From a virus, in IMG/VR virus record IMGVR_UViG_3300036761_001580, positions 133,198-197,197 of that record: a DNA stretch of 64,000 nucleotides, one strand, 5' to 3'. Positions within the stretch are counted from its first letter, which is position 1; the number at the start of each line of letters is the position of its first letter. The notes under the pieces are model-generated. The model was not told the DNA's origin. It saw only the letters and a program-made list of their open reading frames with translations, and did not search any database. Of this stretch, positions 32,932 through 57,600 are shown in pieces. A program made the translations under genes and the position numbers.

Positions 32932-32956
32932 CAAAGCCTCCTACGTTAGCCCCGTG

Positions 32957-38031: not shown

Positions 38032-38042
38032 GGCACCGCCCT

Positions 38043-39473
38043 CTACGACACGAGGCTGATGATGAGATCCGCCGCTTCCAAGTAGGCGTAGTCCATCGGA
38101 CCAATCAGGATGTCCCCCACCCCGGTCCCACCCTTGACCGCCAAGGTGACGTACACCCAATTGTCCACACCGCTAACGGACGCGACCTGAGCGTCGATGT
38201 CGAACTCCTCAACATCCATCCCAAGTTTCAACGAATTGATGTATGTGAGAACCTTGTCCCTAACGGAACCCAGAATAGTAGTCGGGTTGCCAGAACCAAC
38301 CTTCAATTCTGCCTCAACGACAATGCTCTTTTTCTGAGCCCAGCGATACAGCACATCGGAACCCATGACGAGGTACACGGGCTGTTTATACAGCGCCGTA
38401 ACGATATTGATCATCGCGTTGTATTGGTATACAATTCTCAAAGGAGCATTCAAAGCAGGGGCTGCCCCTCCGATGAGGAACCGGATCCCATCTCGGCCCC
38501 GGTTGCTGTAGGCGTAGATCCCCTCCCCGGTCACAACCTCGTAGTCGACCCCTTCGGTATAGTAGGTGGGCCCACTGGAGACAGCCGTAACCGAGATGAG
38601 CGGTTGCTTGGGAAGAGGAACCAGCTCACGCACACCTCGGTAGTAGGTGTCGTAGGTATCAGTAGCTGGAGCTGTAGACTTGATCCAGACATCTGACGCT
38701 CCCGCATCTTCAGATTGACGCTCCAAGTTTGGATCAGCCCCATAGACAACGTGGCTGTCTTCAATATTGCTCATCAAGTTCAATGCAAACGCTTTGAGTC
38801 CTGTAGGAGTGGCCTCCTGATTTCCTGTAATACGAGTCTGATACCGAATCGCCAGGTCAGAGTTCGTCTCCAACCCACGGCCTGTCGTAGTAGCTGACTT
38901 GTTCGTAACGTACTCGAAATCTGGAAACGACCGACGAAACTGGGTGATCGTGTAGGCCCCAACCATGGTGTTTCCGCCAGCAACCACGCTCACCGCGGCA
39001 ACATCGATCTCGTACCGTTGAGTCTGAACATTGTAGTACGATGACGGGGACACGGTCAATGGGCCGTACATAGTCTTCGTCTCGATTGTCCGGAAATTGA
39101 CAACCTGTCCAGTCTTCGGGTCCGTTTTAGTTGCCAACGGAAAATTCAAAGGGACTGTAATATCCGCAGAAGGAGGAAGCAATCGAGAAAAAGTAACGAC
39201 CGTATAGGAGGGGGAGCCCGTCCACCTAACCACGTTCTCGTTATAAACAAAAGCATCCAGATCCTCAGGATTGAAGGTCCCTGCATTCTGCATGCTCAAC
39301 AGTTGGCTGAGATACACGATGTTATCGTGAATACCCTTCATGACCTCGGACGGCGGGGTGATGTACAGGTCTCTGATCGGACCGATGTAAGTGTCAATAG
39401 TCTCATCACGAGACGCAATTCCGTTAGAAATAAGGTCCTCGAACTGGGCTACGGTTCTTCGCTGAATGACCAT
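38043..39473 (-). CDS. baseplate J-like protein (Mu gp47 / P2 gpJ / T4 gp6-like wedge)
   Basis: 476 aa. Synteny (after the gpW-like small gene, before fibre genes) and size. Call is from context plus general similarity, not a hard motif. Confidence 0.5.
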   Translation of the reverse strand: MVIQRRTVAQFEDLISNGIASRDETIDTYIGPIRDLYITPPSEVMKGIHDNIVYLSQLLSMQNAGTFNPEDLDAFVYNENVVRWTGSPSYTVVTFSRLLPPSADITVPLNFPLATKTDPKTGQVVNFRTIETKTMYGPLTVSPSSYYNVQTQRYEIDVAAVSVVAGGNTMVGAYTITQFRRSFPDFEYVTNKSATTTGRGLETNSDLAIRYQTRITGNQEATPTGLKAFALNLMSNIEDSHVVYGADPNLERQSEDAGASDVWIKSTAPATDTYDTYYRGVRELVPLPKQPLISVTAVSSGPTYYTEGVDYEVVTGEGIYAYSNRGRDGIRFLIGGAAPALNAPLRIVYQYNAMINIVTALYKQPVYLVMGSDVLYRWAQKKSIVVEAELKVGSGNPTTILGSVRDKVLTYINSLKLGMDVEEFDIDAQVASVSGVDNWVYVTLAVKGGTGVGDILIGPMDYAYLEAADLIISLVS

Positions 39474-39476
39474 GGT

Positions 39477-39911: not shown

Positions 39912-39912
39912 C

Positions 39913-40413
39913 TTACGGCACCACCGATGCTGCTTCCATCTTGGCCCAATATATCGCGTCGTCGATGGACTCTACCAGTGCGACCAACTCGTTCTTGATC
40001 CCCTCCCAGTACTGAAAGAGGACCTCTACTTCGTCCATGAAGGATAGCACATTTTTGTAGCGTTCCCTATAGATGCTCAGAGCCGCTACAGAGAGGTCAA
40101 AAATCTGCAACGCAGGGTCCGTAATGAGCTGGTAAAACTCCGGGCACAGCTCCTTAAAAGGCCCTCCGGGTATGGCCGTCAGCGCGTTTCTGATCGTGTC
40201 AATGATGGCTTGAACGATGGCCCAAGCTGCCTCCTCGATGGCCTTCAGGATGTCGAGTTGGGAGAGTAAGGCTTTCAAGAGCTGGACCTGGAGGTCGATG
40301 AACTGGATGATCGCGAGTAGTATCGCCTTCAGAGCCTCCAGAAGAGGAGCGACTTGGGCGTACAGCCACTCCAGGATGCACTTCGCGATGGTTCCGCCTA
40401 CAGTGAAGGCCAT
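39913..40413 (-). CDS. hypothetical tail/baseplate protein, 166 aa
   Basis: Track ORF, tight spacing in the operon, helical composition. Confidence 0.4.
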   Translation of the reverse strand: MAFTVGGTIAKCILEWLYAQVAPLLEALKAILLAIIQFIDLQVQLLKALLSQLDILKAIEEAAWAIVQAIIDTIRNALTAIPGGPFKELCPEFYQLITDPALQIFDLSVAALSIYRERYKNVLSFMDEVEVLFQYWEGIKNELVALVESIDDAIYWAKMEAASVVP

Positions 40414-40420
40414 GTTTCAC

Positions 40421-41890
40421 CTACAACGTCATCGACTTCGTCGACAACGATCCACTCAAAGCGGCAGCAAGAGCCGTTGCCGCAGCCGCCAGGGCCGTGA
40501 ACTGAGCAGTCCCCGGTAGGAACACCGGGATCGCTGCCAGGGCCGTAAAAGCCGTGCTGGAGGCCGCAAGGTACGCCGCCAGCGCCGCGTTGAACGTCGT
40601 CCCCTTGATCAAGGGCTCGGACGCTCCGATCCCGAGCAGCATCAATGGAGAGTCCAGAGTCAAGGGACCGCCCACGCACGACATCACGCAAGGGCTCGCC
40701 CCCAGGGAGATCGAGGGGGCCGCCAGCGCGATGGACGCCGCCTTCAGGGTCATCGCCGCCGCGGCCGTCAGGTCCATCGTAGCGCCCGCAGTGGCACTCC
40801 AGGCTCCGGCCACCGTGAAGTCCATCTTCCCACCCACCTTCAGGCTGTAGTCGATTCCGACGTCCAAGGCGTACGTCGTAGTGGTTTTCCAGTTGACCAT
40901 CGTGTTCAGAACGGTCCAGGTCGAGGCCGGCGTGAACCACTGGAGCCCTACGGCCGTCTTGGCTGACACACCCCAGTTCCCCAGGTTGTCGGTCATCTCC
41001 ATCCACATGGGAACCATGCCCGAGGCGTCATCCATGACCTCCCGGAGGATCCTGACTCCGGTGCCTGTGAGAGCTACCGCGAGATCCGGAGAGAAGGTCG
41101 CTGGAGGCACGATCTGTGCCGTCAGGTCGTCGACCACCTCACCTTCAGAGGTGCGCACCATGATCTGACCCGCAGGGAATGGGATCGTTGCTCTCTTAAC
41201 GTAGTGAGTGTGCTCCTGTGCCACGCTGCCGAACATCACGTCATAGACTGGCATCTCCGAAGTATCAACAGGAGTCAAAAGACGCTTCACAGAGCCCGAC
41301 CTCGACTCCGAGGCCCCACCGTAGCGCTGATGGATGAGATCCGACTGGAGGGTCACTTCGTTCCGGGGCTTGTCCAGTGTGATCGAGTGCGATCCGGCTG
41401 TCAGTGAGATGCGGTCACCCATGTAAAACGCGCAGCCCCTCGCGCTCTTGAAACTCCAGTCTCCTGGACGGAGACGCTTACCCGAAGCATCACCCCAGCC
41501 GATCCCCCCACGGTCCTCGGTGCTGTCGTCAAGACGCTTCATAACGCGAAAGTCCACAGTGCTGTATCCAAGGGCGTGAGCCTTACCCTTGGTATCGAAC
41601 GCCACAAGGATGACGTCATCCAGCTGCGGACAATAAACACCCCAGGAAAATCTCAAATAATTTTTATCAGTATCACCCTCCTGCGTAGGAGCAGAAAATC
41701 CTATGAGGGGGATAGGTATCGTACGAGGATCTCCACCATCAAGAAACACTACACCAACGGTACCCTCCTCCAGATGCAAATCCTTCACCTGCACCTTGTG
41801 TATTGTAGAGTAATACTCCCGGTGTAGACGACGGTCTTCCAGAATCGAAGAAGTAGCCGGATTCGTATTTATACGCCCACAACCACCCAT
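40421..41890 (-). CDS. baseplate central spike / hub protein (gpV/VgrG-like), 489 aa
   Basis: Position in the Mu-like order. C-terminal Ala/Thr/Leu/Ser-rich repetitive tail (TAGATMDLTAAAAMTLKAASIALAAPS..) typical of spike C-termini. Confidence 0.4.
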   Translation of the reverse strand: MGGCGRINTNPATSSILEDRRLHREYYSTIHKVQVKDLHLEEGTVGVVFLDGGDPRTIPIPLIGFSAPTQEGDTDKNYLRFSWGVYCPQLDDVILVAFDTKGKAHALGYSTVDFRVMKRLDDSTEDRGGIGWGDASGKRLRPGDWSFKSARGCAFYMGDRISLTAGSHSITLDKPRNEVTLQSDLIHQRYGGASESRSGSVKRLLTPVDTSEMPVYDVMFGSVAQEHTHYVKRATIPFPAGQIMVRTSEGEVVDDLTAQIVPPATFSPDLAVALTGTGVRILREVMDDASGMVPMWMEMTDNLGNWGVSAKTAVGLQWFTPASTWTVLNTMVNWKTTTTYALDVGIDYSLKVGGKMDFTVAGAWSATAGATMDLTAAAAMTLKAASIALAAPSISLGASPCVMSCVGGPLTLDSPLMLLGIGASEPLIKGTTFNAALAAYLAASSTAFTALAAIPVFLPGTAQFTALAAAATALAAALSGSLSTKSMTL

Positions 41891-41897
41891 GACAACC

Positions 41898-44456: not shown

Positions 44457-44467
44457 CTAGGTCTCCG

Positions 44468-45247
44468 CTACTCAAGCTCATTGAAGAATTGGGTCCCCAA
44501 CGAGAGTGAAATGTACCTAAAAATATCATCCATGGATGGCATCGTCTCCGTCGCCACGAAGCTGAACGAGTAGTTCTTACTAAACGGGTTGGACGCATCG
44601 TCCGTGAATTCCAAAACCCGGTCAAAATACCCAATGAATGTAATCATGGCGTTACCTAAGATAGGGCTCGTATACATAAAGTAGGACTTATTCGGAATTC
44701 CGGAAAACGGATCTATCACGGGTTCCCGCGTCATGCTGTATAGATTCCAGAAGTTCAGCAACTTCGAAGCACCCGCCAAAGTCTCTACATCAAGGCCCTC
44801 CTGCTTCGTCTGCGATTTCAAAAAGTCACGGAGCCTCTTGGTCTGCTTGGAGACCACACTGTTTCGTTGCATCCCCGTCCTGATATTTATGTTCCCCGTA
44901 CTTCCCGAGAACGCTATATTGATAACGTCGTTGTTCCGACCCTTCGCATTGGTCCAGTGAAAAAACACCGCGCCAGACTGAGTGTCCCTCCTGGTGATCC
45001 TCTTGTTCTGCGTAAAGGTCACCGTCTCGGGGTTCATCTTCATACGCACAGGATCGATGTCGTTCCGAGTCCTGTGATCCGAACTGAAGACAAAAGGAAC
45101 CCGGTAAGACACATCCTCGTAGGGATTAAGAATTCGCTCAAGTATACGCTCAGCAGAAGGGGCTTGGATCCCATTGCTAGTACCGAAGGCCTCCATCATG
45201 TTCTTCCAAAATTGTTGCTTCGTAATAGCCATGTATACACCTATCAA
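44468..45247 (-). CDS. tail protein, 259 aa (unassigned)
   Basis: Track ORF directly downstream of the tape-measure paralog cluster. Confidence 0.45.
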   Translation of the reverse strand: MIGVYMAITKQQFWKNMMEAFGTSNGIQAPSAERILERILNPYEDVSYRVPFVFSSDHRTRNDIDPVRMKMNPETVTFTQNKRITRRDTQSGAVFFHWTNAKGRNNDVINIAFSGSTGNINIRTGMQRNSVVSKQTKRLRDFLKSQTKQEGLDVETLAGASKLLNFWNLYSMTREPVIDPFSGIPNKSYFMYTSPILGNAMITFIGYFDRVLEFTDDASNPFSKNYSFSFVATETMPSMDDIFRYISLSLGTQFFNELE

Positions 45248-45265
45248 ACCCCGCCGGAGGCAGGG

Positions 45266-48001
45266 CTATTGAAATACGGCTTCGCCCTCAACCCGTTTCC
45301 CCGTCTCTTTGTCCCACATACCTCCTGCGATGGGGACAACCAGACCTCGGCCCTTTTTCCAACCAGATCCGCTTTCATGCCCACTACCTGTGGGGCGGTG
45401 GATGAACCTCGTAGCCCCCTTCGTCCAGTCTCCAGTACCCTTATCCCCACGAAGAATGCTACGCGCGAAGTCTATGGTCTCCGGATCCGGACGGGCTCCT
45501 GAAGCAAAATTCCTTCTGCCGGCCTTCCCGTACTTCTTGTTCCCAGCATCGCTCGCTCCCCAGCCCTTCTCGGCAGTAATGGCCTTCGCGAGCTTACCCC
45601 CTCCACCCTTTTTGAGGCCACCTACGCGGTTCAACGCAGTCCAAGCGATACCCAGCTGTTCCTTTCTACGGTCATCTCGGTACCTGCCGGACTCGCTCTG
45701 AATCATCCGTGCCAGAGCCTCCACGTCCTCACTGGTAAAAGAGCCCTCTTTGGACAATTGCATACTAGAGAACGTCCCTGGAGCGCCTCCGTAACCGCTG
45801 ATATTGGTGAAATCGAACCCGCACCGAGGACAATTTCCCGAGATGAGGATATTGATGCTCCCCTCGGCATCCACACTCTGCACCTGAAGATGCAAACCCC
45901 CGCCGACCCATTTGTCACCCCAGTCCTGAACAGAGCCCGCCTTGGTGCCCTTAGAACCCTTAGAGGACGAAGCTCCAGGAACAGGTCGAGGAGGTACGAT
46001 GTCCTGAGTGAAAGGAGACCCCTTCTCCAGATCAGCAGCAGGGATGTTGATACCCCCCAAGACCGGAGTACCGCCGCCTTTAGGAGATTTGGACAGAGAG
46101 CTAGACCCATACGGATCGTAGTCCCAAGCCTTCTTCAGGGCCTGCAACGAGGGCCCCATGATGTCACTCGCCATACCCTTGGCAGAGGCAATCATCTGGT
46201 CGAGGCCGCGTCCCATCTTTGCTTTGTTCTTCCCCTGGTTGCCCAGGAGGTTTTCAATATCTTGCGCCAGCTCACTTTGTGCCTTGGTGTTAAAAGTAAT
46301 GGCGTTGACAATGAACTGCGGCATGGCCTTGAGGTATGCAATAAGGTATGCCAAAGCGGTAATGACGTATCCCATCAACCCTTGACCAAAGTTAGCCAAA
46401 CCCTTCAACCACTTGTTCATCATGAGTTCGAACTTGCTTCTTTTCTCTGCCTCCGTATGAAACGAGTTCTTCAGAATGGTGATGTTATCCTTCGCTGCTT
46501 TCGCGGCTTGAACCATATTTCCTTCGCGAGCGTGCTTCCCAATAGTAGCAATCAAACGGGCCCCCTCAAACCCCAGGCCCATAGAGGCTTCCATGAAGTA
46601 CCGGGCTGCATCTTCATCTTCCCCAGTAGCCTTCATCGCCATGTCGTAAATGGTAGTCACAATGTGAACGACCTCATTTGTGTCCTCCCCATCAAGAACA
46701 CGCAAGAAGGCGTCCATCATCTTCTGTCTCGCTTCCAAGCCCTTCCCGTACCCCAAACGCTCTCCCAGGGCGACCTTCCAGTTGTCACCCATCTTTGCCA
46801 CGCCACCAGCGAACTGTTGAAGACCAACGGCCGCCTGCTTCCCGGCAAACTGCTTGGGCACCCCCATCTTCGAGAAGGCATCCGTAACGTGCACATAGAT
46901 GTCCACTACGTTATCAATATTATAGCCCATCCGAGCCAACTCGGAACTAGCGTCCTCGACGTTCTTCACAAACTGCATAGCACCCACACCAGAGTCCCGA
47001 CCGACCATGTACATGCGGAGAAGGGAATCCTTCGCCTCATCAGCCGTCTTCCCATAATCCGCCATCATGCCGACCATCCGCTTCGCGCTCTCCCCGCCCG
47101 GAAGTTCAAACATCTTATCCAAGGCAAGAGTCACCGTCACCGCGTTCGATTCCACATCCTTGAAGACTGACTTCATCGGAGACATCATCTGGGAGACGCT
47201 GAAGCCTCCGTCAACGAACGCCTGCGCGGTAGCCTGGATTTCTTCACGTTGGATGCCCAAGAATCTCTGGAAGGTTTCTTGAATCGCAGACAACCGGGAA
47301 GTACCTTTTGCGAGCGCTCCCTTGACGCCGTCATCGTATGCTGCAATGAGAATATTTTTCATCTCTCCCGACTGGGCACGAACACGGTCTCTATCCATGT
47401 ACCCGTAAGCCATGATGCCAATGAATCCCGCCACGATAGCCGCGGGCTTGGGTATCTTCAACTTCGACATCATTCCGCCGATCCTACCCTTGACAGTCCT
47501 CACTTCTGAGGTGAGGTATCTTCCGATAGGGCCGCGCTTTTTCTTCTTCCCCTTGGATCCTTTGGAAACGACCCCTCCTTGAGCCGTACCCCCTCCAAGG
47601 CCGCCCCCAACGCCCTCACCATCGTCACCCTCAGAGGGTGCAGTAGCCTCCGTCACCGCGGCCTCTGCCCTCTTGGAGAGGCTCTCAAAGCCCTGCTCGG
47701 CACCAGTTATCGCCCCCCGCATCCCCTCGAACACGGAATCGAACTCTGCTGAAAGACCGCTGAACTTACCTGCTATGGAACTGATGTACTCCTCGCTGGC
47801 TCCGATGGCTTTCGCGCCTTCCAGCAATCGAGGATCACCCGATATTTCGTCAATAGTTGCCTTGAAGCCCTCTCGCAAGCTGTCCAACAGCGAATCGAAG
47901 GACTCGGTGTTGGCACGAGACATATCTGTAATTGCAGCACCAAGATCCGTAAATCTGGTACGGGCCTCTTCGAGCTGCTGGATGTCAACCAATCCACTCA
48001 T
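45266..48001 (-). CDS. tape-measure-like protein, paralog 3 of 3, with C-terminal SleB/Hydrolase_2-like cell-wall hydrolase domain
   Basis: N-terminal coiled coil. TM-like segment AAIVAGFIGIMAYGYM followed by the conserved RVRAQSGEMKNIL box shared with the two upstream paralogs. C-terminus CPRCGFDF...EDVEALARMIQSESGRYRDDRRKEQLGIAWTALNRV resembles the SleB-type hydrolase core (LAR.I..E..GE....AV..V.NRV). Confidence 0.65.
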   Translation of the reverse strand: MSGLVDIQQLEEARTRFTDLGAAITDMSRANTESFDSLLDSLREGFKATIDEISGDPRLLEGAKAIGASEEYISSIAGKFSGLSAEFDSVFEGMRGAITGAEQGFESLSKRAEAAVTEATAPSEGDDGEGVGGGLGGGTAQGGVVSKGSKGKKKKRGPIGRYLTSEVRTVKGRIGGMMSKLKIPKPAAIVAGFIGIMAYGYMDRDRVRAQSGEMKNILIAAYDDGVKGALAKGTSRLSAIQETFQRFLGIQREEIQATAQAFVDGGFSVSQMMSPMKSVFKDVESNAVTVTLALDKMFELPGGESAKRMVGMMADYGKTADEAKDSLLRMYMVGRDSGVGAMQFVKNVEDASSELARMGYNIDNVVDIYVHVTDAFSKMGVPKQFAGKQAAVGLQQFAGGVAKMGDNWKVALGERLGYGKGLEARQKMMDAFLRVLDGEDTNEVVHIVTTIYDMAMKATGEDEDAARYFMEASMGLGFEGARLIATIGKHAREGNMVQAAKAAKDNITILKNSFHTEAEKRSKFELMMNKWLKGLANFGQGLMGYVITALAYLIAYLKAMPQFIVNAITFNTKAQSELAQDIENLLGNQGKNKAKMGRGLDQMIASAKGMASDIMGPSLQALKKAWDYDPYGSSSLSKSPKGGGTPVLGGINIPAADLEKGSPFTQDIVPPRPVPGASSSKGSKGTKAGSVQDWGDKWVGGGLHLQVQSVDAEGSINILISGNCPRCGFDFTNISGYGGAPGTFSSMQLSKEGSFTSEDVEALARMIQSESGRYRDDRRKEQLGIAWTALNRVGGLKKGGGGKLAKAITAEKGWGASDAGNKKYGKAGRRNFASGARPDPETIDFARSILRGDKGTGDWTKGATRFIHRPTGSGHESGSGWKKGRGLVVPIAGGMWDKETGKRVEGEAVFQ

Positions 48002-48002
48002 G

Positions 48003-50297
48003 CTATGGTGTCCCCATCCTTGGATTCAACGTCGGGTACTGCTCCACCTGAGACTGTAACACAGCATTTCCCAAATCTTCTGTAGATATTGGGGGCTGGG
48101 CCGGATTGATCACTGGGCCGGAAGAGGCCCCCACCGCAGGCTGTGCGGTGCGTTCTCGCGCTTTCGGATCATCCGCTCCTACGTTCCTGGTGACCAATAC
48201 ATTGGACAATGCGGTCGCCACTGCCCCGCCGAGAATACCCGTCGCGGAGACCAACTTGAAGTGCTTCTCCGCAGGTCCTTGCAGACCTGTCCCCTCCAGC
48301 AACTCCTCCTCATGACGAAATCTCTTCTCCTGTTCGGCTTCGGGATCTCCAAAAACACCACCCCACGAGTCCTTAGGATCGGTCTTCATCCCTCCAGGCA
48401 GTGGTGGCGGAGGGGGTGCCTTGGGATCCCAGCGCATAGCTCCAATAGCGGGAGCGAGAGAGTCCCCAAACTCCTTCCCTAAGGCCGTCAGAACTCCATC
48501 CGTACCCTTCAACATCAGGTCCCACCCATCGGCCATATTTTTAAAAACCTGACGATTCGCGTAATACATTTTCAACTTGAGTCCATAAGCAGTGCGGCCC
48601 CCCGAGCCCTCTTCACCCTGAATCATCATAGACTTCAATCCGAGTATGCAAGCCGCGATGAGAGAAACCAATATCGCCATAAGACCAACCCCGATGTTCG
48701 ACATGGAAGTAACCAGCTCACGACGGGTCTTAAACAACTCGGAAACCATCTTTCCTTCCGTAGTAAAGGCCTGCTTCAGATTAGCGCGAGCCTCCTTCGA
48801 CATACTTTCCAGGGTATCACCCTTCTCTAAGATCCCCAAGGTATCGACCAAGATCGCCGCCGAACGGTTACTCGTTCGTAGGTTCTGCTGCACGGCCAAG
48901 ATCGCCTTACTTCTTTCAGGAGTCGTTCTCTTAATAACCAGAGTCCCGTAAGAACGAATGAGAGACTCCAAAAAGCTCTCGTCCTTCCCGGAAGAAATCC
49001 TACGAAGACCGTCACTGAACCGAATAAGAAGCTCATGTGCATTCGATTCAGTATCTTTGAAAATGTCTCTCGCCAAGGCCACTTTCATTTGGTCATCCAT
49101 CTTCGTGAACGCCGTCATGAGGTCCACAGCGACCCCCTCCACCTCACGGCCGGCGTACTGGGACTCCAAGCCCATGCTCGCGTAGTGTCCTAACAACTTC
49201 TCCACGAAAGAACCAACGGTCTCTGCGTTGATGCCCATATTTGAGAGAGGATCCGCAGCAGCCATGACGATACGAGTAAAATTACTGACCCCTATGGAAC
49301 TCCGCTCTCCCGCAGCGGTCATCTTTACGGTCAGATCCGCCGCAGAGTTGAGTGACATCCCGTAATCACGAACTAGGGTTACGATGTTCTCCATCGATTC
49401 CGATGTAGAAAAGTTGTAATGTTTTCCCAACCCAAGAGAGAGGGTAATAACGTTGTGCCCTACACGCCCCAGACCCTTATCGTAGCGCCTCAAAGCGTCA
49501 GTAGCAGAAAATCCATTGTCTACCATCACCTTGGCAGCAGCCTGGACCTCTTTACGACCCACACCCCAGTACCACTGCGCCCGCTCACCCCAATTCGCAA
49601 ACCAACGAGTAGCCTTCCGTCCCGCAGCAGACATGACACTGTCTACACTGCCCTCGAAAATGTTAGCCATCTCCCCCATCTCGGCACGACGTCGATTATG
49701 CTCCGTGTATCCGAGAGCAATAGAACCTATAACAGCACCAAGAAATCCTGAAGAAAGCTGACCAGGGATGTTACTCAAGATACTCTTAATTTTGTCCTTG
49801 GTCTTCTTCATCTCCTTTTCAACAAACTCAATCAGCCTGGAAGTTCTCTTCTTATGCCTCTTGACCATCTCCTCGGCAGAGGTAACAGAAATGTAGATTC
49901 TGGATTCCGCACCATCGAGCTTCTGCTCTGCTTTCCGAGGATCTATTCCAGCTAAAGAAGACTCCTGAACCTGCTGCACCGCCGCCGATGCGGTGTCCGC
50001 AGCGCCAGCCCCCTCTTCGGAAGGTCCAATATTCTCAAAAACCCCTTTGAGGTCACCGACACTACGAACAGCACCATCAATAGCACCCTTGATGCGCTCA
50101 GCCTCCGCAGAAAAAGCAACAGCAGGAGAGGGCATAGAAGTAGGAACGGATGCAGACGCCAAGGAGCCCAGAGAGACCTTCATGTCACGGCCCAGGAGTT
50201 GTACTGCCGAGCCCAGGTCCGTGTACGTGCGGTGTACAGAATCAACCTGGTCACTCAGGTCCGCAAGATCCAGGTCTATCAAAAAAGAGTTCTCCAT
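48003..50297 (-). CDS. tape-measure-like protein, paralog 2 of 3 (764 aa)
   Basis: Shares the GFLGAVIGSIALGYTEHNRRRAEMGEMANI box, AQWYWGVGRKEVQAAAKVMVDNGF and HYASMGLESQYAG motifs with the flanking paralogs. Helical, with a second TM-like stretch (IGVGLMAILVSLIAACILGL). Confidence 0.65.
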   Translation of the reverse strand: MENSFLIDLDLADLSDQVDSVHRTYTDLGSAVQLLGRDMKVSLGSLASASVPTSMPSPAVAFSAEAERIKGAIDGAVRSVGDLKGVFENIGPSEEGAGAADTASAAVQQVQESSLAGIDPRKAEQKLDGAESRIYISVTSAEEMVKRHKKRTSRLIEFVEKEMKKTKDKIKSILSNIPGQLSSGFLGAVIGSIALGYTEHNRRRAEMGEMANIFEGSVDSVMSAAGRKATRWFANWGERAQWYWGVGRKEVQAAAKVMVDNGFSATDALRRYDKGLGRVGHNVITLSLGLGKHYNFSTSESMENIVTLVRDYGMSLNSAADLTVKMTAAGERSSIGVSNFTRIVMAAADPLSNMGINAETVGSFVEKLLGHYASMGLESQYAGREVEGVAVDLMTAFTKMDDQMKVALARDIFKDTESNAHELLIRFSDGLRRISSGKDESFLESLIRSYGTLVIKRTTPERSKAILAVQQNLRTSNRSAAILVDTLGILEKGDTLESMSKEARANLKQAFTTEGKMVSELFKTRRELVTSMSNIGVGLMAILVSLIAACILGLKSMMIQGEEGSGGRTAYGLKLKMYYANRQVFKNMADGWDLMLKGTDGVLTALGKEFGDSLAPAIGAMRWDPKAPPPPPLPGGMKTDPKDSWGGVFGDPEAEQEKRFRHEEELLEGTGLQGPAEKHFKLVSATGILGGAVATALSNVLVTRNVGADDPKARERTAQPAVGASSGPVINPAQPPISTEDLGNAVLQSQVEQYPTLNPRMGTP

Positions 50298-50304
50298 ATG
50301 TTCC

Positions 50305-52671
50305 CTAAGGAGGAGGTACCCTCTGCGCCTCCGCTTTGTTAGACGCTGTTTTTATAAGACCTCCATCAACCTTGGCATTCGCGCCACCAACATTCTCAGG
50401 CATCTCTGTCTGGTAGTCATCATACTCTGGTGAAGCATTTTCTTTAGCCCTACCCTTATACCGGGCCTTCTCAACAGCGGCGAGCTTATCGGGAAGATCC
50501 TCAGCCGCCACGGCAGCGTCCTCCCAGGAATCATGAGAATCCAGAATAGCTTGTTCCGGATTTTCATTAAGAGATCTCCCAAAAGAAGAAGAATTAAGAT
50601 CATACAACTTGCGAAGAAACCAAGCCTTCACATGTGCGTACCCTTGCGCTGCTTGTATATCTAGCTGCCTCTTGAACTCTTCATCCGTAAACATCTGCAA
50701 AAAGTCATCCTTCAGCTCTTTGAGAGCAGCTTTCGCCTCTGCTGCGGAGGTTATAGTCTTAACGCCACCCTCCGATGGAGCGTCCCATTTGAGGACATCA
50801 ATTATGGGTTGAAGATCATTCTTGAACTCCGTCTTCATCGCCGCAGCAGCATCTTTAAGACCAGTGTTGGCCGCATCAATGCCGGCACTCATACTATCGC
50901 CCAACTTGTCGTATTGAGCCCTAATATCCACAAGAAACTTTTTGTCGCCAGTGGGTAAGGCAGCGGCAATAATCTCCGGAAGATACTTGATGCTGAGTAC
51001 AATGGCCCCTACCAAACCTGCCAAGACCTTCAGGAGGCCCTGACCAATGGCAGAGATCGCATTAGTAAGATCTCTTGTCAGCTTCGCAAGATCAGAAATC
51101 TTCTCACTCTCAGTAGAAAGAGCATTTTTAATGAGCCCTTGCTGCTCAACAGAAAGCTCCGAGAGCTTGTTACCCTTCGCCAACTCGGTAGTCGCATCAT
51201 ACAAGCCGGCAGCTGTCCTGTTGTCACCGATCTTGGACTCTATGAGGCGAATCGCCTGCGCCCGGGTCTTGCCTCCTTGAGAGGCCCACTCCCTCAGAGA
51301 AAGAAGTGTCCGAGTAACGAAGTCCTCGCTGCCGGACTGACGCGCCCTCTTGAAGCCGTCCTCCCATTTCTGCCGAGCATCCACGCCTGTCAGCTCGGGG
51401 AACATCCTCTGAGCTATCATGGCTTTCATGGAAGGGTCCATCCCCGCAATCCCTTGTGAGATCCCGTTGATGAAATTAGTCGCCTGGTTTCCTGCGTACT
51501 GGGGGCTGAGACCCATCTTCTCGTAGTGCTTCTGGATGGTGCCCATGATTCCGGCAACCTCGGCCACGTCGACACCATACTGCTGCATGGCAGAAGCCCC
51601 GGAAATGATGGTATCTGTGAACTTGCTGATGCCCATGGCGCTCTTCTGACCGGCAAACGCGATTCTAGAATACTTGTCCGTCGCCTCCTGCAAGCTGTCT
51701 CCCAAGGACGTAGTAATCTTGGTGATGTTGCTGATAGAGGTCCCGGTATCCTGGTTGAAGTGTTTATCCAACGCGATGGACATGATACCGACATGCTGGC
51801 CCGCAGCACCCAGGGATGAATTGAACGTAGCCATGATCTCATGGGCCTTGTAACCGGCGTCGACCATGGCCTTCAGAACACCTTGAGTTTCCTCACGGGA
51901 GATGCCGTAGTACCACTGCGCAGTCTCCTGGAATTGGGAAAACCACGATGTTACCTTTCTAGACGCATCGGAAGATATAGCTTCTCCCGAAGCCTCAATA
52001 ACATTCAGCATCTCCCCTTTCTGTGCCTTGAGCCGGTCCCTCTCCGTAACCCCTAGAACCATCGCTGCAAGGAGCCCAGATACTACACCCCCACCCAGAA
52101 TCCCTCCAGGAACGTGGCTTGCGATCTCCTGCGCCTTGCCCGCAGCTGCTTCCAGCTCGGACTCCAAATACTTTTTGACACGGTTCACATCCTCTTCAGA
52201 CTTCTTATCCGTGTCAGCGACAACTCGAATAACGTTCTCAGCGTTCTCTTGGGCAATCTCAACGGAAGCACCTGCAAACGCAGCACCTTCCAGCATGACA
52301 ACCACCTGGCTCTGAGCCTGCTCCATCGCCGCCCCGGAGGAACCCGACGCCGGGCCCCCAGAAGCCTTCATCCGAGACACTTCACTGGCGATCTTAATGC
52401 CGTGCTGAGAAACGGTATTCAGCATCTCCGAAAAAGATCCAGTGCCCTCCTTTATGTGCTGGATGGAACGCTCCATCTGCGGATTCAACGAACCGATCAT
52501 CGTGGTGACGCTCGACGCCCGGGTCTGCAACGTGTTGAGATCCCCCGAAACCGCAGAAACAAGGGCCCGCAACGACCCGCCAAAAGCCGTGTAGGACTTA
52601 GTCGCCTCCGAGATCTGGTCTCGGAACTTGTCGAAGTCCCACCGCAACAAATATGATTCTACCTGAACCAT
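50305..52671 (-). CDS. tape-measure-like protein, paralog 1 of 3 (788 aa), in the canonical TMP position after the G/G-T chaperones
   Basis: Shared boxes GLLAAMVLGVTERDRLKAQKGEMLNVI, AQWYYGISREETQGVLKAMVDAGY and HYEKMGLSPQYAG. Immediately downstream of the frameshifted chaperone pair. Confidence 0.7.
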   Translation of the reverse strand: MVQVESYLLRWDFDKFRDQISEATKSYTAFGGSLRALVSAVSGDLNTLQTRASSVTTMIGSLNPQMERSIQHIKEGTGSFSEMLNTVSQHGIKIASEVSRMKASGGPASGSSGAAMEQAQSQVVVMLEGAAFAGASVEIAQENAENVIRVVADTDKKSEEDVNRVKKYLESELEAAAGKAQEIASHVPGGILGGGVVSGLLAAMVLGVTERDRLKAQKGEMLNVIEASGEAISSDASRKVTSWFSQFQETAQWYYGISREETQGVLKAMVDAGYKAHEIMATFNSSLGAAGQHVGIMSIALDKHFNQDTGTSISNITKITTSLGDSLQEATDKYSRIAFAGQKSAMGISKFTDTIISGASAMQQYGVDVAEVAGIMGTIQKHYEKMGLSPQYAGNQATNFINGISQGIAGMDPSMKAMIAQRMFPELTGVDARQKWEDGFKRARQSGSEDFVTRTLLSLREWASQGGKTRAQAIRLIESKIGDNRTAAGLYDATTELAKGNKLSELSVEQQGLIKNALSTESEKISDLAKLTRDLTNAISAIGQGLLKVLAGLVGAIVLSIKYLPEIIAAALPTGDKKFLVDIRAQYDKLGDSMSAGIDAANTGLKDAAAAMKTEFKNDLQPIIDVLKWDAPSEGGVKTITSAAEAKAALKELKDDFLQMFTDEEFKRQLDIQAAQGYAHVKAWFLRKLYDLNSSSFGRSLNENPEQAILDSHDSWEDAAVAAEDLPDKLAAVEKARYKGRAKENASPEYDDYQTEMPENVGGANAKVDGGLIKTASNKAEAQRVPPP

Positions 52672-52674
52672 GCT

Positions 52675-53957
52675 CTACTTCATCACATCCAGAGTCACCA
52701 CGGGACGATCATCTACCTTAGGAGTGGGCTTGCTCAGGCCTAGATCCACCTCTTCCAACTCCGGCGCTCCTTGAGGTTCAAGAACCTTCTTGCCATACTG
52801 GTTTTTTATATCTGAACGAACCCTCCCAATAGTTCTTGCACTCTTCTCCACAAGGGGATCATCTCCAAGATCATCCTTGGATAACACGAGGTTCTCCAAG
52901 AGCATCTGCGTGTCGCGTCCGCCCCAATTCATGGCCTTGAGGAGGTCTTCCGGAGCGTTTTCGAACTCAACATCCCCCTCGTCCTTCATGAACGCTTCCA
53001 GCGCCTCAGGAGTCAGCTCCGCGACTCCGGTATTAACAGTCACTCCGTCCTTGCGAGCAACATCAGCGACTTCCAGCTGCTGAAGAACTTCCTGCTGGTT
53101 GATGTACTCTTCCGTCCTACTTTTTATCGCTGCCAGGACATTATCGTTTCCGATAAGAAGCACGAGAGGCAGACACTCCTCATCCCCCGGAAGACGTAGC
53201 CTTCCAGTTCTTTCGTCTTCGACCGGAAGCAAGTTCAAACCCAGCATGGAGACCACTTGCTTCCTCACAGCCTCAGAAATAGTCCGGATGTCGTCATAGC
53301 GTTGCTTCTCCTGAAGGTTCATCGACTCCAGCTCAAAAATCCACTGGGTATCGTTCATTCCTTTCAGCCGAGGATCCCCTAACGGGATCATCCTCTTGGT
53401 CAGGACCTTCGCCTTGATCCTGAGCTTCGCTACTAGCCTTCTCCAGATGGGGTAGATTCGGTCCCAGTGGGCTTCTCGCCCTTCTCCGAACCCACCCCTG
53501 AGGATTTTTTTATGTTGCCCTGGGCGGCCTCCCTGCGTTCTTCCAGAGCCTTCCAGTATTTCCACAGGTCTTCCAGCATCTCCGGAGGCCTCGCGCCCAG
53601 CCACTCCATCATGTGCTCGGCAGAAAAATACTTCTGCGTGAAGGTGCCTTTGCTCTCCACAAGACGGAGAAGGTTCCGCCCCTCTTCGGTCTCCTCCCAT
53701 TGAGAACGGAAGAACTCGAAAATGGGGACACCATCGACCTCGCGAATACCGATAGAGAGCGTCGGGAGCCTCCAGGAGGTGACGGTGGACAACCCGCTGC
53801 CCATGTTGATGAAGCCATTCCTCCAGTTGGACTCCTCCTCGTTCAGAAGACGAATTCGGAATTTCCGGCCCTTCCAGGTAAACACCTCCTCCAGGCACTC
53901 ACCGTCGAGTTCCTTCGCGAGGTCGTCCAAGATTCTTTTCGGATTGTCCGTCGACAT
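52675..53957 (-). CDS. tail assembly chaperone G-T fusion product made by -1 programmed ribosomal frameshift at A_AAA_AAA (53511..53505)
   Basis: The G frame (53957..53433) and the -1 frame (track ORF ending at 52675) overlap by ~70 nt. The zero-frame codons read AAC ATA AAA AAA TCC, giving a classic X_XXY_YYZ heptamer A_AAA_AAA. After the slip the -1 frame reads KKILRGGFGEG...MIPLGDPRLKGMNDTQW.. through to the stop at 52675. The gene pair sits between the tube and tape-measure genes, as in nearly all long-tailed phages. Confidence 0.6.
53433..53957 (-). CDS. tail assembly chaperone (gpG-like), 174 aa
   Basis: Track ORF directly between the tube genes and the tape measure. Contains the slippery heptamer near its 3' end. 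Confidence 0.6.
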   Translation of the reverse strand: MSTDNPKRILDDLAKELDGECLEEVFTWKGRKFRIRLLNEEESNWRNGFINMGSGLSTVTSWRLPTLSIGIREVDGVPIFEFFRSQWEETEEGRNLLRLVESKGTFTQKYFSAEHMMEWLGARPPEMLEDLWKYWKALEERREAAQGNIKKSSGVGSEKGEKPTGTESTPSGEG

Positions 53958-54012
53958 GGCGCTTTCGCTCCCTTCTCCCGGGGTTTCCGGGGTGTTTTGT
54001 CGATGACGAACT

Positions 54013-54618
54013 CTACATCAACCGTCGCATCTTTACATACACTAAAGTGGCATTAACGAGTATTAAACGGTCTCCTTGGGCTTGCATTACCCGTCCGAGA
54101 CTCGTAAACCAGCAGCCCGTGTACCAATTCTTCTCAACCGTGACTTCCTGGCCCGCTCCGGCACGACCAATGTCGATCCCTTCAAGCTCGTTCGCAGTTC
54201 CAAGGCCCAAGGCCTTGCCGAACTTCTTCGATCCGATCTTATCCAACAACGAAGAAGTTGTGACCAACTCCATGCCCGGAATCAGAGGCTTTTCCTTCGT
54301 TCCGAACTTGATCCACTTCTCTTCGATATCGATAGGATTGTGCTGATCCGTCAAAGCCCACAACGGCTTCGGCATCCCCCAGATCTCTTCCATCTTCTGG
54401 GTGTAGAGATCATACCGAGTCACCTGGAGGGTCTGTGTGGTCGCCACTCCCGGGACGGCCTCAATGGGCGCTCCGGTCCCGACCGCATTGATCTCGAACT
54501 TGAGCTTAACGTCACGAGCCTGACTTGGGCTCCAATTCTGAATCCTCCCTATGGTCACGTCCGCTGCACGGAGCGTTATAGCATGACTTGTTCGGAGTTC
54601 AGTGCGTGGTACAGGCAT
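54013..54618 (-). CDS. tail tube protein, paralog B (201 aa)
   Basis: N-terminus MPVPRTELRTSHAITLRAADVTIGRIQNWSP.. and C-terminal GCWFTSLGRVMQAQGDRLILVNATLVYV are colinear with paralog A. Position after the sheath gene. Confidence 0.65.
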   Translation of the reverse strand: MPVPRTELRTSHAITLRAADVTIGRIQNWSPSQARDVKLKFEINAVGTGAPIEAVPGVATTQTLQVTRYDLYTQKMEEIWGMPKPLWALTDQHNPIDIEEKWIKFGTKEKPLIPGMELVTTSSLLDKIGSKKFGKALGLGTANELEGIDIGRAGAGQEVTVEKNWYTGCWFTSLGRVMQAQGDRLILVNATLVYVKMRRLM

Positions 54619-54623
54619 GGATC

Positions 54624-55070
54624 CTACGTCATCTTTGTACAGTTGACGTACGCCAAGGTAGCGTTGACGAGCACGATCCTGTCACCTTGGGCCTGCATGT
54701 TGCGTCCGAGTTGAGAGAACCAGCAACCGTAGTAAACGAAGCTCTCATTCAGCCCAGGACTCGACCACTTCTCAGTGATTTCTAGGGGGGTGAGCTGATT
54801 TGAAAGCATCCACAAGGCCGCCGAGGTACCCCAAACCTCTTCCATCTTGGAGGTGAACAAGTCGTAGCGGCTCACCTGAATGGTCAGACCCGTGATGTTG
54901 CCCGGAACGTTCTCAGTCACAGTTCCAGAACTCTCAGAACGAAGCTCATACGCTGGCGTAATGGTCTTCGACTGGGTTGGAGCCCACGTCTGGATCTGAC
55001 CGATAACGGTTCTACCCGCGCGAATGGAGATCGCATGGCTAGTACGAATTCCTGTGTTAGGGACTGGCAT
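54624..55070 (-). CDS. tail tube protein, paralog A (148 aa)
   Basis: MPVPNTGIRTSHAISIRAGRTVIGQIQTWAP.. with GCWFSQLGRNMQAQGDRIVLVNATLAYV. Directly downstream of the sheath gene. GGAGGAGG SD upstream. Confidence 0.65.
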   Translation of the reverse strand: MPVPNTGIRTSHAISIRAGRTVIGQIQTWAPTQSKTITPAYELRSESSGTVTENVPGNITGLTIQVSRYDLFTSKMEEVWGTSAALWMLSNQLTPLEITEKWSSPGLNESFVYYGCWFSQLGRNMQAQGDRIVLVNATLAYVNCTKMT

Positions 55071-55095: not shown

Positions 55096-57600
55096 CTAGG
55101 CGGGGCTGAAGAACGGGTTGTCGACCGAGTACTCACCGAAGAACCGCTTGGCCGGATACTTCAGGTTGTACCAGTACTTGAAGTAGAAGGTCCTGGGATC
55201 AGTCGTAGACTGATACACCACGATGTCCGTCGTGGCGTCGATGTCCCGCGGCAATCCTGACGGGTCGCGGTAGGACGCAATCGAGCCGTTGTTGATGTTC
55301 GCCGTGATGCCGAGCAAGATCCACTTCTTGCAGTCCGAAATGAAGTCGCTCAGATCGTCCGGCACCACACCGATGACGTTGCTCGCGAGCAGCGTGTCGA
55401 CGGTCTTCGTGACCGCGTCCTTCTGGGCGCTGGAGGCCGGCTCCTCGAACTGCACCACCTTGGCACCGCCGGCCTCGGTGGAGATCGGGTCGAGCATGAC
55501 CAGCCGGCCGGCATCGAGCGTGACCACGAGGACGCCCTTGTCCGCCAACGTATGCCGCTCGCCGCGGAGGTACGTCCCGAAGCCCTCGGTCTTGAAGCCG
55601 GTGATGAACTTCCCGATGAGCGCCGACGAGGGGCTCGGGAGAGCCGTGTAGACCGACGCGACGGCGACCGCGATGTAGGTGCCATCCACGTTGAGATCGA
55701 TCTCCTGACTCGTATCGAGCTTGATGGTGCGAGTCGCATCACCCGGAGAGACCAGGAACAGACGCCCGCGGCCCGGAGAGGTGTTGCCCGGCTGCAAGGT
55801 CTTGGTCGACCGATAGACGAAGGTGTTCGGCGTGTCGGGGTCCCCGACGTCCGTGCCCCGCGCCATGCCGAACCAGCCGCGCCGGTAGTGCTTCTCCAGC
55901 ATCGACGACTGGTCCGCGACGTGCAGCATCTGGTACACCGCAGTGTCGAGCGCAGTGTCGATGGTGACGACGTCCGTGACGGTCGAGTACTCCTTCGCAG
56001 CATCGAGCGCGGAGTTGATCTCCAGCTGCGTCGGCGTGCCGGGGGCCACCGAATCGTTGATCTGGAAGAGGTACACCGAGGAGACGCCGTTCTCGAACGC
56101 GATCTCTCCTGCCACGCAGAGCTTGTTGACCAAGTAGTTCTGCATCGTCAGCTTGGTCGTGTACTGGTAGAGCTGATCCGGATCGTACACACGGTGTCCC
56201 GTCGTGTAGTCCGTGGCCGGGCGGACGTAGTCGTACGTGCAGTAGTAGTTCGTCCCGAACGCCGGTCGCTTCCCGGTGCCCTGGGCCGTGTAGGGCAGCG
56301 TGATCGCGCCGAACAGCGTCGTGAAGGCGTTCGCAGCGGTCGCCCGGAACTGAATCGAGCTGGCGACACCCTTCTCCGGGAGGTAGTTCTCGAAGTCGTC
56401 CGGGCACCGGATCCGCACCGTGTTGCCCACGACGACCGCCATGTGCGAGAACTCCGGGCCGTACGCACTCGCAATCGAGGCCAGCGCGGCGTTGATGTCC
56501 GCGGCCACAATCGCCGGAGTCGTCGGAGCGCCCGGGGTCAAGGTCACGAGGACCTGGGTGCGGTTGTTGATGGACATCAGGAGCTTGTCGTTGGTGGCCG
56601 CCACGATGGTCGGCGGGAAGGCGACGAAATCCAACGTGGTCGCCGTCGCCTGCAACCAGGTCGTCACATCCCAGTCGACATCGTTGGCGATGCCAACTTC
56701 GTAGTCCGTGTTCTTCGTGTAGTCCACACCGCCCGGGTACGAGCCGAGGTAGTTGATGTCCGACAGAGGGGTCGAGGTGCCGGCATTCGTGAGAGCATCG
56801 GTGAGGATGTCGACCGACACGTAGTCCAGAGTGTAGACGGCAGACGACGTATACGCCGCGTCGAACACCTGGAGGCGCGTCGGCGCTTGGACGCCGGCAC
56901 CGACCGTCGGCGTCCATGCCGCGGTCGAGATCGTGGACGCTCCGTCGAGCGCCGCGTTCGGGGAGATGAACACCTTCACGTCGGAAGCAGGCTCTGTCGA
57001 GGGGGACGTGAGGGTGATGATCTCGTTCACCACACCCACGGCGTGGGTCGCCACGGCAGCGTAGGTCAGACCGTAGATCAAAAAGAACGGCCCGAGCGCG
57101 TTCGCCAGAGCGTAGTTGATGGCGTTGCAGATGTTCGTCGGAGTCGCAACCGCAGCAACACCGCCGACCAGAGGTACCAAGGTGTTGAAGTCCAGCGTCA
57201 CGGCCCGCTTCCCGTCGAGAGCCAATGTGAAGTACGGAGTGCCGGTCGCCAGGGAGACGTCCACCGTCACGCCGGCCCACTCGGTGCCCACCAGACGCGC
57301 AGCCAGGAACTGCCAGTCCGAGAGCCCCAGCGGGTTCCCATTCATGTAGATCTGGGCGCTGTTCCTGGACCTGTTCGAGGTGTTCGCCAAGGTTCCTACG
57401 TGAGGAGACCCGACGGTCAGCGTCAGCGTCTCGTCGTAGATCTTCCCACGGGTGACCGGCTCGTCCACGCTTCGACGAGTGCGCGGAGCGATGGCGAGGA
57501 TGCCCAGTGTGCGTTCGGAGGTGACGGAAACCGCACCAGGGACAATCACTTCCGCGATGTACACGCCTGGATCGACATATTTCGAAATGCTGATTGCCAT
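55096..57600 (-). CDS. contractile tail sheath protein (834 aa)
   Basis: N-terminus MAISISKYVDPGVYIAEV is a typical sheath start. Large size. Followed by tube and chaperone genes. AGGGAGG SD 10 nt upstream. Confidence 0.75.
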   Translation of the reverse strand: MAISISKYVDPGVYIAEVIVPGAVSVTSERTLGILAIAPRTRRSVDEPVTRGKIYDETLTLTVGSPHVGTLANTSNRSRNSAQIYMNGNPLGLSDWQFLAARLVGTEWAGVTVDVSLATGTPYFTLALDGKRAVTLDFNTLVPLVGGVAAVATPTNICNAINYALANALGPFFLIYGLTYAAVATHAVGVVNEIITLTSPSTEPASDVKVFISPNAALDGASTISTAAWTPTVGAGVQAPTRLQVFDAAYTSSAVYTLDYVSVDILTDALTNAGTSTPLSDINYLGSYPGGVDYTKNTDYEVGIANDVDWDVTTWLQATATTLDFVAFPPTIVAATNDKLLMSINNRTQVLVTLTPGAPTTPAIVAADINAALASIASAYGPEFSHMAVVVGNTVRIRCPDDFENYLPEKGVASSIQFRATAANAFTTLFGAITLPYTAQGTGKRPAFGTNYYCTYDYVRPATDYTTGHRVYDPDQLYQYTTKLTMQNYLVNKLCVAGEIAFENGVSSVYLFQINDSVAPGTPTQLEINSALDAAKEYSTVTDVVTIDTALDTAVYQMLHVADQSSMLEKHYRRGWFGMARGTDVGDPDTPNTFVYRSTKTLQPGNTSPGRGRLFLVSPGDATRTIKLDTSQEIDLNVDGTYIAVAVASVYTALPSPSSALIGKFITGFKTEGFGTYLRGERHTLADKGVLVVTLDAGRLVMLDPISTEAGGAKVVQFEEPASSAQKDAVTKTVDTLLASNVIGVVPDDLSDFISDCKKWILLGITANINNGSIASYRDPSGLPRDIDATTDIVVYQSTTDPRTFYFKYWYNLKYPAKRFFGEYSVDNPFFSPA

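Follow-up and report, generated by a model that had tools for sequence, protein, structure and literature searches.

Tape-measure proteins and the closest described systems

Tape-measure proteins (TMPs) are treated as single-gene homo-oligomers that set the length of the phage tail and then form the conduit for DNA through the bacterial envelope; in phage T5 the single TMP, pb2, also carries a cell-wall hydrolase. The TMP gene is always preceded by a frameshifted tail assembly chaperone gene of the G/GT type, and the λ-type G and GT proteins are made by a -1 programmed frameshift, which is conserved in the tail assembly genes of double-stranded DNA phages. We know of no tandem, anciently conserved TMP paralogues, and literature searches found no report of multiple, tandem or anciently conserved paralogous TMP genes. 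Here we describe three tandem genes, copies 1, 2 and 3 (c1, c2 and c3 below), in the single TMP slot of a contractile-tail phage represented by IMG/VR virus record IMGVR_UViG_3300036761_001580; "the window" is the whole stretch analysed, 64,000 nucleotides from position 133,198 to position 197,197 of that record. Our analysis shows that c1, c2 and c3 are anciently duplicated members of one divergent TMP family.

Bacillus phage G gp183, a protein of 2893 amino acids (AAs) annotated as 'tapemeasure / tail protein with lysin activity', occupies the same slot, after the sheath, two structural proteins and a frameshifted chaperone (there a joined coding sequence, or CDS) and ahead of the baseplate hub. 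Phage G-like TMPs share with c1–c3 a helical character, the possession of hydrophobic segments and a distally placed lysin module, but in place of the single TMP of phage G there are here two or three diverged paralogues of ~770–950 AAs, with a lysin on the last only. The closest deposited relative is Virus Rctr197k (KX853510.1), which has one TMP-slot feature (L008:22064-24073), annotated as a misc_feature 'similar to hypothetical protein' and not as a CDS; its ~670-AA product is a distant homologue of the core of all three clades of copies described below (tblastn E values of 6e-13 to 2e-4). The contractile-tail TMP of phage T4, gp29, has coiled-coil and transmembrane parts; it differs in being a single gene whose product is a homo-oligomer without a hydrolase, and we detected no sequence similarity between it and c1–c3. 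With the λ-type G/GT arrangement the window shares a slippery heptamer that lies in phase close to where the upstream gene ends, a -1 extension and the position before the TMP, but the T part is long here (~276 AAs) and one chaperone pair would serve three TMPs. Finally, Sle1-type effectors (PMC13277306) are TMP-related, membrane-targeting proteins with a swappable C-terminal domain that are packaged in a contractile particle; they differ in being cargo of a non-phage particle and in being paired with an Sle2 core-domain partner, whereas the genes described here are tandem paralogues in a phage tail operon.

Three paralogous genes with a common layout

A first-pass annotation of the window had reported three large tandem open reading frames (ORFs) of 788, 764 and 911 AAs. 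Their coordinates were reproduced exactly, and all three lie on the minus strand:

50305..52671, minus strand: c1, TMP-family paralogue, 788 AAs (ORF and translation)
48003..50297, minus strand: c2, TMP-family paralogue, 764 AAs (ORF and 28% identity to c1)
45266..48001, minus strand: c3, TMP-family paralogue with a C-terminal hydrolase module, 911 AAs (ORF and homology)

The three products had also been called paralogous, and pairwise BLASTP with compositional adjustment bears this out: c1 and c2 are 28% identical over 655 AAs (E = 3e-72), c1 and c3 are 26% identical over 416 AAs (E = 4e-39), and c2 and c3 are 26% identical over 407 AAs (E = 2e-38). With E values of 3e-72 to 2e-38 under compositional adjustment, the similarity reflects homology and not shared composition; the objection that the common sequence boxes might be merely compositional fails, and the boxes are colinear and equally spaced. 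The distance from box 1 to box 2 is 42 residues and that from box 2 to box 3 is 131 residues in c1, c2 and c3 alike, and box 3 lies 164–167 residues from the second hydrophobic segment. The signature boxes had been described as shared by all three copies; they are indeed present and colinear in all three and exact in c1 and c2, but they are degenerate in c3, which reads FQRFLGIQREEIQ where c1 and c2 have AQWYxG and AFSKMGVPKQFAG where they have HY..MGL..QYAG.

The common layout spans about 630 residues in each copy, beyond which the copies diverge. It begins with an F/Y-T-x-L-G motif that is nearly invariant across copies, followed by long helices of low model confidence (~160–200 residues) and by a short, Gly-rich hydrophobic segment 1 that leads into box 1 (G-Y-x-E/D-x-D/N-R...G-E-M-x-N). 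After box 1 come an all-α core, a strongly hydrophobic segment 2 and a long helix with a WD motif at its end. Counted between the DR motif and hydrophobic segment 2, the core is 330–337 residues long in almost every measurable copy of every lineage, and 335 residues in the single-copy outgroup Rctr197k; the exceptions are the L020/L031 lineage (320–329 residues) and two other copies (340–341). AlphaFold2 (AF2) models of c1 and c3 are all-helical to about residue 630 according to DSSP, and the c1 model has a mean predicted local distance difference test score (pLDDT) of 63, with 70–89 in core residues 200–620. Two hydrophobic segments per copy were located by a Kyte-Doolittle scan, or by alignment in the case of segment 1 of c2 and c3:

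52048..52104, minus strand: c1 hydrophobic segment 1, Gly-rich, residues 190-208, directly before box 1 (Kyte-Doolittle)
50959..51036, minus strand: c1 hydrophobic segment 2, residues 546-571 (Kyte-Doolittle)
49707..49757, minus strand: c2 hydrophobic segment 1, residues 181-197 (aligned with the c1 segment)
48636..48695, minus strand: c2 hydrophobic segment 2, residues 535-554 (Kyte-Doolittle score 2.6)
47399..47443, minus strand: c3 hydrophobic segment 1, residues 187-201 (aligned with the c1 segment)
46298..46378, minus strand: c3 hydrophobic segment 2, residues 542-568 (Kyte-Doolittle)

Assignment to the tape-measure family

Matches of these proteins to Pfam tape-measure models are weak. 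With TMP_3 (PF20155) c1 scores 20.8 bits (E = 3.4e-4), below the cut-off of 41, and with PhageMin_Tail (PF10145) 16.1 bits (E = 0.01), below the cut-off of 33.2; c2 gives a sub-threshold 12.5 bits with TMP_3, and c3 matches neither model. Weak matches of the same kind were seen for 2 of 25 family members with TMP_3 and for 1 of 25 with PhageMin_Tail, and scans of c1, c2 and c3 against PHROGs and NCBIfam gave no match. Sequence-profile searches of the PDB with the c1 and c3 profiles returned only chance matches of coiled coils and designed helices to the N-terminal region, and Foldseek searches of the PDB with the full-length c1 and c3 models found nothing at E <= 1e-3. When the c1 AF2 model was compared by Foldseek with BFVD there were 115 matches at E <= 1e-3, the best at 1.7e-8, and all named entries among the top 50 are tape measures or a 'minor tail protein'; the TM-scores of these matches are low (0.15–0.37), as expected of flexible helical models. 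The BFVD search was run with c1 only, c2 and c3 being tied to c1 by homology.

Three independent lines, the structure of c1, synteny and the frameshifted chaperone, nevertheless place c1–c3 in the TMP family. The genes lie after a frameshifted chaperone and before a tube-initiator-like gene, the position of a TMP gene, and their products are long, mainly α-helical and furnished with hydrophobic segments that may insert into membranes, as seen in the AF2 models of c1 and c3 and in the Kyte-Doolittle profiles. Membership in the family is founded on this synteny and architecture and on the Foldseek matches, and not on a Pfam match that passes threshold; with Pfam scores below cut-off, c1–c3 are most plausibly divergent members of the TMPs that carry a distal lysin.

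We also considered the ejection proteins of podophages (T7 gp14/15/16 and P22 gp7/16/20), which are head-internal core proteins that form a trans-envelope channel and have no role as a tail ruler. This identity was rejected, since the genes lie within a contractile-tail operon with sheath, tube and chaperone genes. No PHROG or Pfam ejection-protein family was matched by c1–c3, and the analogy is a functional one only.

A hydrolase module on the last copy only

The earlier claim that a cell-wall hydrolase domain is confined to the most downstream copy held up: c3 alone has an extra C-terminal domain, and this domain aligns with the Hydrolase_2 region of an orthologue, P0035. Two elements can be delimited in this part of c3:

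45809..45910, minus strand: β-rich element upstream of the hydrolase, c3 residues 698-731 (invariant GNCPRCG motif)
45398..45733, minus strand: putative divergent Hydrolase_2 (SleB/CwlJ-like) cell-wall hydrolase domain, c3 residues 757-868 (alignment to P0035)

The C-terminal domain of c3 is 36% identical to residues 674-839 of P0035 (E = 6e-23). That part of P0035 contains a match to PF07486 of 30.5 bits, and P0027 has one of 29.3 bits (cut-off 27); PF07486 is matched by 10 of the 34 c3 orthologues. The hydrolase domain of the window c3 itself has no direct Pfam match, PF07486 included, and its fold found no match in the PDB either by sequence profile or by Foldseek with the full-length model, whose helical part dominates. 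The domain is modelled with a pLDDT of 80–93. Glu 770, in the sequence MIQSESG, is nearly invariant in the 34 c3 orthologues and aligns with a Glu of P0035, and it may be the equivalent of the SleB catalytic Glu, for which it is a candidate.

In the β-rich element, residues G722, C724, P725, C727 and G728 are invariant in the 34 c3-type sequences, and the c3 model has β strands at 702-724. Its motif, WVGGG...GNCPRCG, sits between a Pro/Gly-rich linker and the hydrolase and has two cysteines only; one JGI record names an orthologue with the GNCPRCG element 'C2H2 Zn-finger protein'.

Among the orthologues a peptidoglycan hydrolase invariably forms the end of the last copy, which in the L020/L031 lineage has a hydrolase-like C-terminus. 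The type of hydrolase differs by lineage (Hydrolase_2, Peptidase_M15, Peptidase_M23 or CHAP), while the TMP body to which it is attached stays orthologous; an SLT-like ESGFN sequence was also recognised by eye. Examples of such swapped modules are P0026, P0032, P0042, P0044 and P0046, and the genes at L020:12164-14908, L031:6911-9955 and L033:10466-13237.

Distribution among relatives

The source of the window is a ~205-kb phage of an uncultivated jumbo lineage; a JGI contig of 205,564 bp is the recorded source of the c1 protein, and all c1 homologues come from metagenome assemblies, several of them on contigs of 141–212 kb. An exhaustive hmmsearch of 1.84 billion cluster representatives (50% identity) puts the family at 405 members with E <= 1e-3; a cut-off of E <= 1e-30 leaves 237. 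Most members are 750–1000 AAs long. The DNA of the region, c1 and c3 had no match in 50,697 GenBank phage records (megablast, tblastn), and the only query that reached Rctr197k by tblastn in those records was P0017. With the c3 profile, a scan of 185,579 species-representative genomes yielded no relatives, so the phage does not correspond to any known prophage. One c1 orthologue, P0018, stands in an NCBI record as 'MAG: hypothetical protein [Patescibacteria group bacterium]' on a 17.9-kb contig, which is most likely a phage fragment mis-binned as Patescibacteria.

A search of related phage genomes for the same multi-copy arrangement had been proposed in the first-pass annotation, and the arrangement is indeed found there, with three copies on 13 contigs including the window and two copies on at least four. 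For this count all ORFs of 36 loci were scanned with the family profile. Besides the window, 12 other distinct contigs have three tandem copies (L002, L005, L006, L007, L011, L016, L017, L020, L022, L025, L030 and L031; the third copy of L006 is broken solely by a 100-N scaffold gap). Two copies are present in L004, L028, L029 and L033, and L035 shows two but ends at the contig edge; c2 is the copy that the two-copy relatives lack. Virus Rctr197k, the sole deposited relative, has one.

Duplication history

The history of the copies was examined with a neighbour-joining tree (Poisson distances, a 451-column region corresponding to profile positions 190-640 and slightly broader than the core of 330–337 residues, 100 bootstraps) rooted on Rctr197k. 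The last copies form a c3 clade with 97% bootstrap support, and the remaining copies form a non-c3 clade with 98%. Within the latter, c1 and c2 of the three-copy phages group together with 98% support, apart from the first copies of the two-copy phages, and c2 is monophyletic (100%) and sister to c1. Orthologues are 31–60% identical, against 16–28% for paralogues. Within each clade, the core and the first 50 residues have a mean pairwise identity of 29–64%, against 9–15% for the fast-evolving C-terminal tails of c1 and c2; of the three copies, c2 evolves fastest.

The locus had been read as an in-place triplication followed by divergence. Tandem duplication and divergence stand, but the bootstrapped tree shows two successive duplications rather than one triplication: with the c2/c1 clade nested within the non-c3 clade, which is sister to c3, an ancient separation of c3 from the ancestor of c1 and c2 was followed by a later, also ancient, separation of c1 from c2. 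In the L020/L031 lineage all three copies group together (96% bootstrap) and not with c1, c2 and c3, which suggests either an independent expansion or concerted evolution by gene conversion. In these loci (L020:6861-14908 and L031:1531-9955, and also L032) a gap of 650–780 nt, possibly with an extra small gene, separates copies 1 and 2.

The possibility that the three genes are an artefact, a single TMP gene broken by sequencing frameshifts, an assembly chimera or a collapsed repeat, has a negligible probability in our judgement. The copies share just 26–28% identity, and a separate start codon and the full architecture are present in each; three full-length genes recur in independent JGI, ENA, NCBI and Logan assemblies; and the copies fall into three orthologous clades, which refutes it. 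Nothing was found in its support, and the annotation of the Rctr197k slot as a misc_feature concerns a different record.

The tail module and its frameshifted chaperone

The genes around c1–c3 agree with the earlier description of the locus as the single TMP slot of a contractile-tail phage: sheath, tube and G/GT-type chaperone genes lie upstream, and a tube-initiator-like gene follows c3. The order is sheath, two tube-like paralogues, chaperone pair, c1, c2, c3, tube-initiator-like gene and a gene for an 852-AA protein, with a baseplate wedge gene farther on:

55096..57600, minus strand: tail sheath, 834 AAs (tblastn to phage G and Rctr197k)
54624..55070, minus strand: tail tube protein, 148 AAs (phrog_985, virion structural protein)
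54013..54618, minus strand: second tube-like paralogue, 201 AAs, with a 53-AA insertion (phrog_985)
53433..53957, minus strand: tail assembly chaperone 'G' product, 174 AAs (directly upstream of the TMP slot; kept in relatives)
53505..53511, minus strand: A_AAA_AAA slippery heptamer of the predicted -1 programmed frameshift (in phase; conserved)
52675..53511, minus strand: predicted -1 frame 'T' extension (conserved -1 peptide, open frame from the slip site)
44468..45247, minus strand: tube-initiator-like protein, 259 AAs, directly downstream of c3 (PF23980, sub-threshold)
38043..39473, minus strand: baseplate wedge subunit (phrog_6, E = 2.7e-17)

By tblastn the sheath has 28% identity (E = 1e-11) to gp178, the 'tail sheath' of Bacillus phage G, and 36% identity to a Virus Rctr197k protein. 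The 148-AA and 201-AA tube proteins are 37% identical to one another (E = 1e-47), and the L004 orthologue of the former has a weak match to PF26461 Phi812_tail_tube. This pair is a second tandem duplication among the inner-tail components, besides that of the TMPs; phage G likewise has two small structural genes at this position. The tube-initiator-like protein matches PF23980 Phage_tail_tube_init below threshold (E = 0.0048), as weakly does its L007 orthologue, and phrog_1011, a virion structural protein.

The chaperone proteins have no sequence match to known G/GT families, but the gene carries the sequence signature of a G/GT frameshifted tail assembly chaperone. The A_AAA_AAA heptamer is identical and in phase in the window and five divergent relatives (L002, L004, L005, L006 and L007). 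The -1 frame is free of stops from the slip site in all six loci and runs into a 238-AA 'gene' that ends 3 nt before c1; its peptide KKILRGGFGEGREAxWDRIFPVWRR is conserved across the six, in contrast to the frame-0 tail, which varies and has low complexity. The GT fusion is predicted to be ~427 AAs long, of which the T part makes up ~276, and the 238-AA gene called separately in relatives is most likely part of the T extension. A 407-AA ORF at 52675-53898 was rejected as an independent gene, as it is the -1 frame of the chaperone.

Spacing is tight throughout: 3 nt separate the stop codon of the chaperone T part from the ATG of c1, 7 nt separate c1 from c2 and 1 nt separates c2 from c3, and each copy has its own ATG. 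Promoter- and terminator-like sites between 44 and 58 kb do not exceed the number expected from shuffled sequence. Because the spacers are of 3, 7 and 1 nt and such sites are not in excess, c1–c3 are likely co-transcribed and translationally coupled. Between the c3 stop codon and the tube-initiator-like gene there is a GC-rich inverted repeat followed by TTT (CCCTGCC-TCC-GGCGGGG; 45248-45265, minus strand); the terminator scan did not call it, and it might serve as a weak attenuator or affect RNA stability.

The G+C content of the tail module (38000-54000) is 52–55%, against ~58–62% in the rest of the window, and the plus-strand GC skew is strongly negative across the TMP genes. The left part of the window contains replication genes and a probable fibre or depolymerase gene (10799-13015, 21183-22994 and 28192-32934, minus strand). 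They code for a DNA polymerase of family A that includes a 3'-5' exonuclease domain, for a helicase of the SNF2 type and for a protein of 1580 AAs that has a NosD-like β-helix region. No tRNA genes were found in the 64-kb window.

How the three proteins might work

The reading we favour, and hold to be probable by a modest measure, is that c1–c3 form a co-expressed heteromeric TMP set lying side by side in the lumen of the tail tube; we infer co-assembly. The one upstream G/GT frameshift chaperone pair would handle all three TMPs, which would then be packed side by side as a heteromeric tape measure, in a stoichiometry of 1:1:1 for a trimeric TMP or of 2:2:2 for a hexamer like the one modelled for T4. 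In such an arrangement duplication of the subunit of a homo-oligomer would leave tail length unchanged, which would explain why lineages with one, two and three copies all retain equal architecture and core length. On contraction the bundle would be expelled, the c3 hydrolase would cut the peptidoglycan, and the hydrophobic segments of all three proteins would insert into the cytoplasmic membrane to give the DNA conduit, the divergent C-terminal tails of c1 and c2 perhaps being specialised for other roles. A preprint reports that the T4 TMP forms an inner-membrane channel for the genome and presents an AlphaFold model of gp48(6)-TMP(6) (bioRxiv 10.64898/2026.03.06.709160). A hexameric TMP would accommodate 6x1, 3+3 and 2+2+2 compositions, while a trimer would fit 1:1:1 but would need 2:1 in the two-copy phages.

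Several points weigh against this reading. No Pfam, PHROG or NCBIfam model reaches threshold on c1–c3, and no solved structure matches the proteins by PDB sequence-profile or Foldseek search. The two-copy relatives do not suit a simple 1:1:1 trimer, and in those relatives the N-terminal segments are of unequal length, the first copy having ~30 residues more there than the second, which is awkward for a strictly in-register parallel bundle. The N-terminal segments of the copies covary in length only weakly (r = 0.56–0.66, n = 10, phylogenetically confounded). In the c1 AF2 model the core folds into a compact helical domain and not an extended rod, so the rule of 0.15 nm per residue may not apply. 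Finally, both the presence of all three proteins in the virion and their association are predictions from the genes. A stronger version of the heteromeric set, in which the TMP would be an obligate hetero-oligomer of paralogous chains (a 1:1:1 trimer or a 2:2:2 hexamer, and 3:3 in the two-copy lineages), is put forward tentatively, as a possibility that we hold to be somewhat doubtful.

In a different arrangement c3, which bears the hydrolase and lies next to the tube initiator, would be the ancestral type and would alone set tail length; c1 and c2 would be TMP-derived pilot proteins or ejected cargo, carried in the lumen or elsewhere, whose action would be confined to the membrane or periplasm during injection. 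The fast-evolving C-terminal tails of c1 and c2, with their 9–15% identity, and the dispensability of c2 in some lineages speak for this, and Sle1 of the Streptomyces SLP offers a precedent for TMP-related cargo in a contractile system (PMC13277306). All copies, however, keep the full N-terminal motif, the helical region and a core of equal length, which would be unexpected had the constraint of a ruler been lifted, and no surveyed lineage has lost both extra copies after gaining them. We think a single ruler with two passengers rather unlikely. Far less probable still is a serial ruler, in which c1–c3 would lie end to end and their summed 2463 residues would specify a tail of ~370 nm, the 2893-AA TMP of phage G having in effect been split in three. 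The summed length is near that of the phage G protein, the synteny is the same, and the sheath is distantly related to the phage G sheath. Yet c1–c3 are paralogues with complete, equivalent architectures and the same N-terminal motif, and not fragments; relatives with one, two and three copies would vary two- to three-fold in tail length, whereas the individual copies stay at ~670–1000 AAs; and we know of no mechanism for the end-to-end registration of TMPs.

Implications

Because the family falls below the thresholds of Pfam, PHROGs and NCBIfam, these genes are now labelled 'hypothetical', and the frameshifted chaperone, too, is split by annotation into two genes. Jumbo myophages of a large environmental clade have stably maintained two or three diverged TMP paralogues over a long evolution, and they offer an example of phages evolving modular, swappable distal enzymes on one chain only. 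This implies that the bundle in the tail lumen can be heteromeric, with subunits that can divide the work, for instance between wall hydrolysis and membrane insertion, and it provides a natural test of TMP stoichiometry (3 or 6) and of whether the ruler is read from one chain or from a bundle. If the heteromeric reading is true, duplication would have turned a homomeric ruler and channel into an asymmetric machine in which one chain cuts the wall and the others carry different distal modules; and if the hetero-oligomer is obligate, it would be the first heteromeric tape measure and a natural system for dissecting TMP stoichiometry and the roles of the individual chains in the channel.

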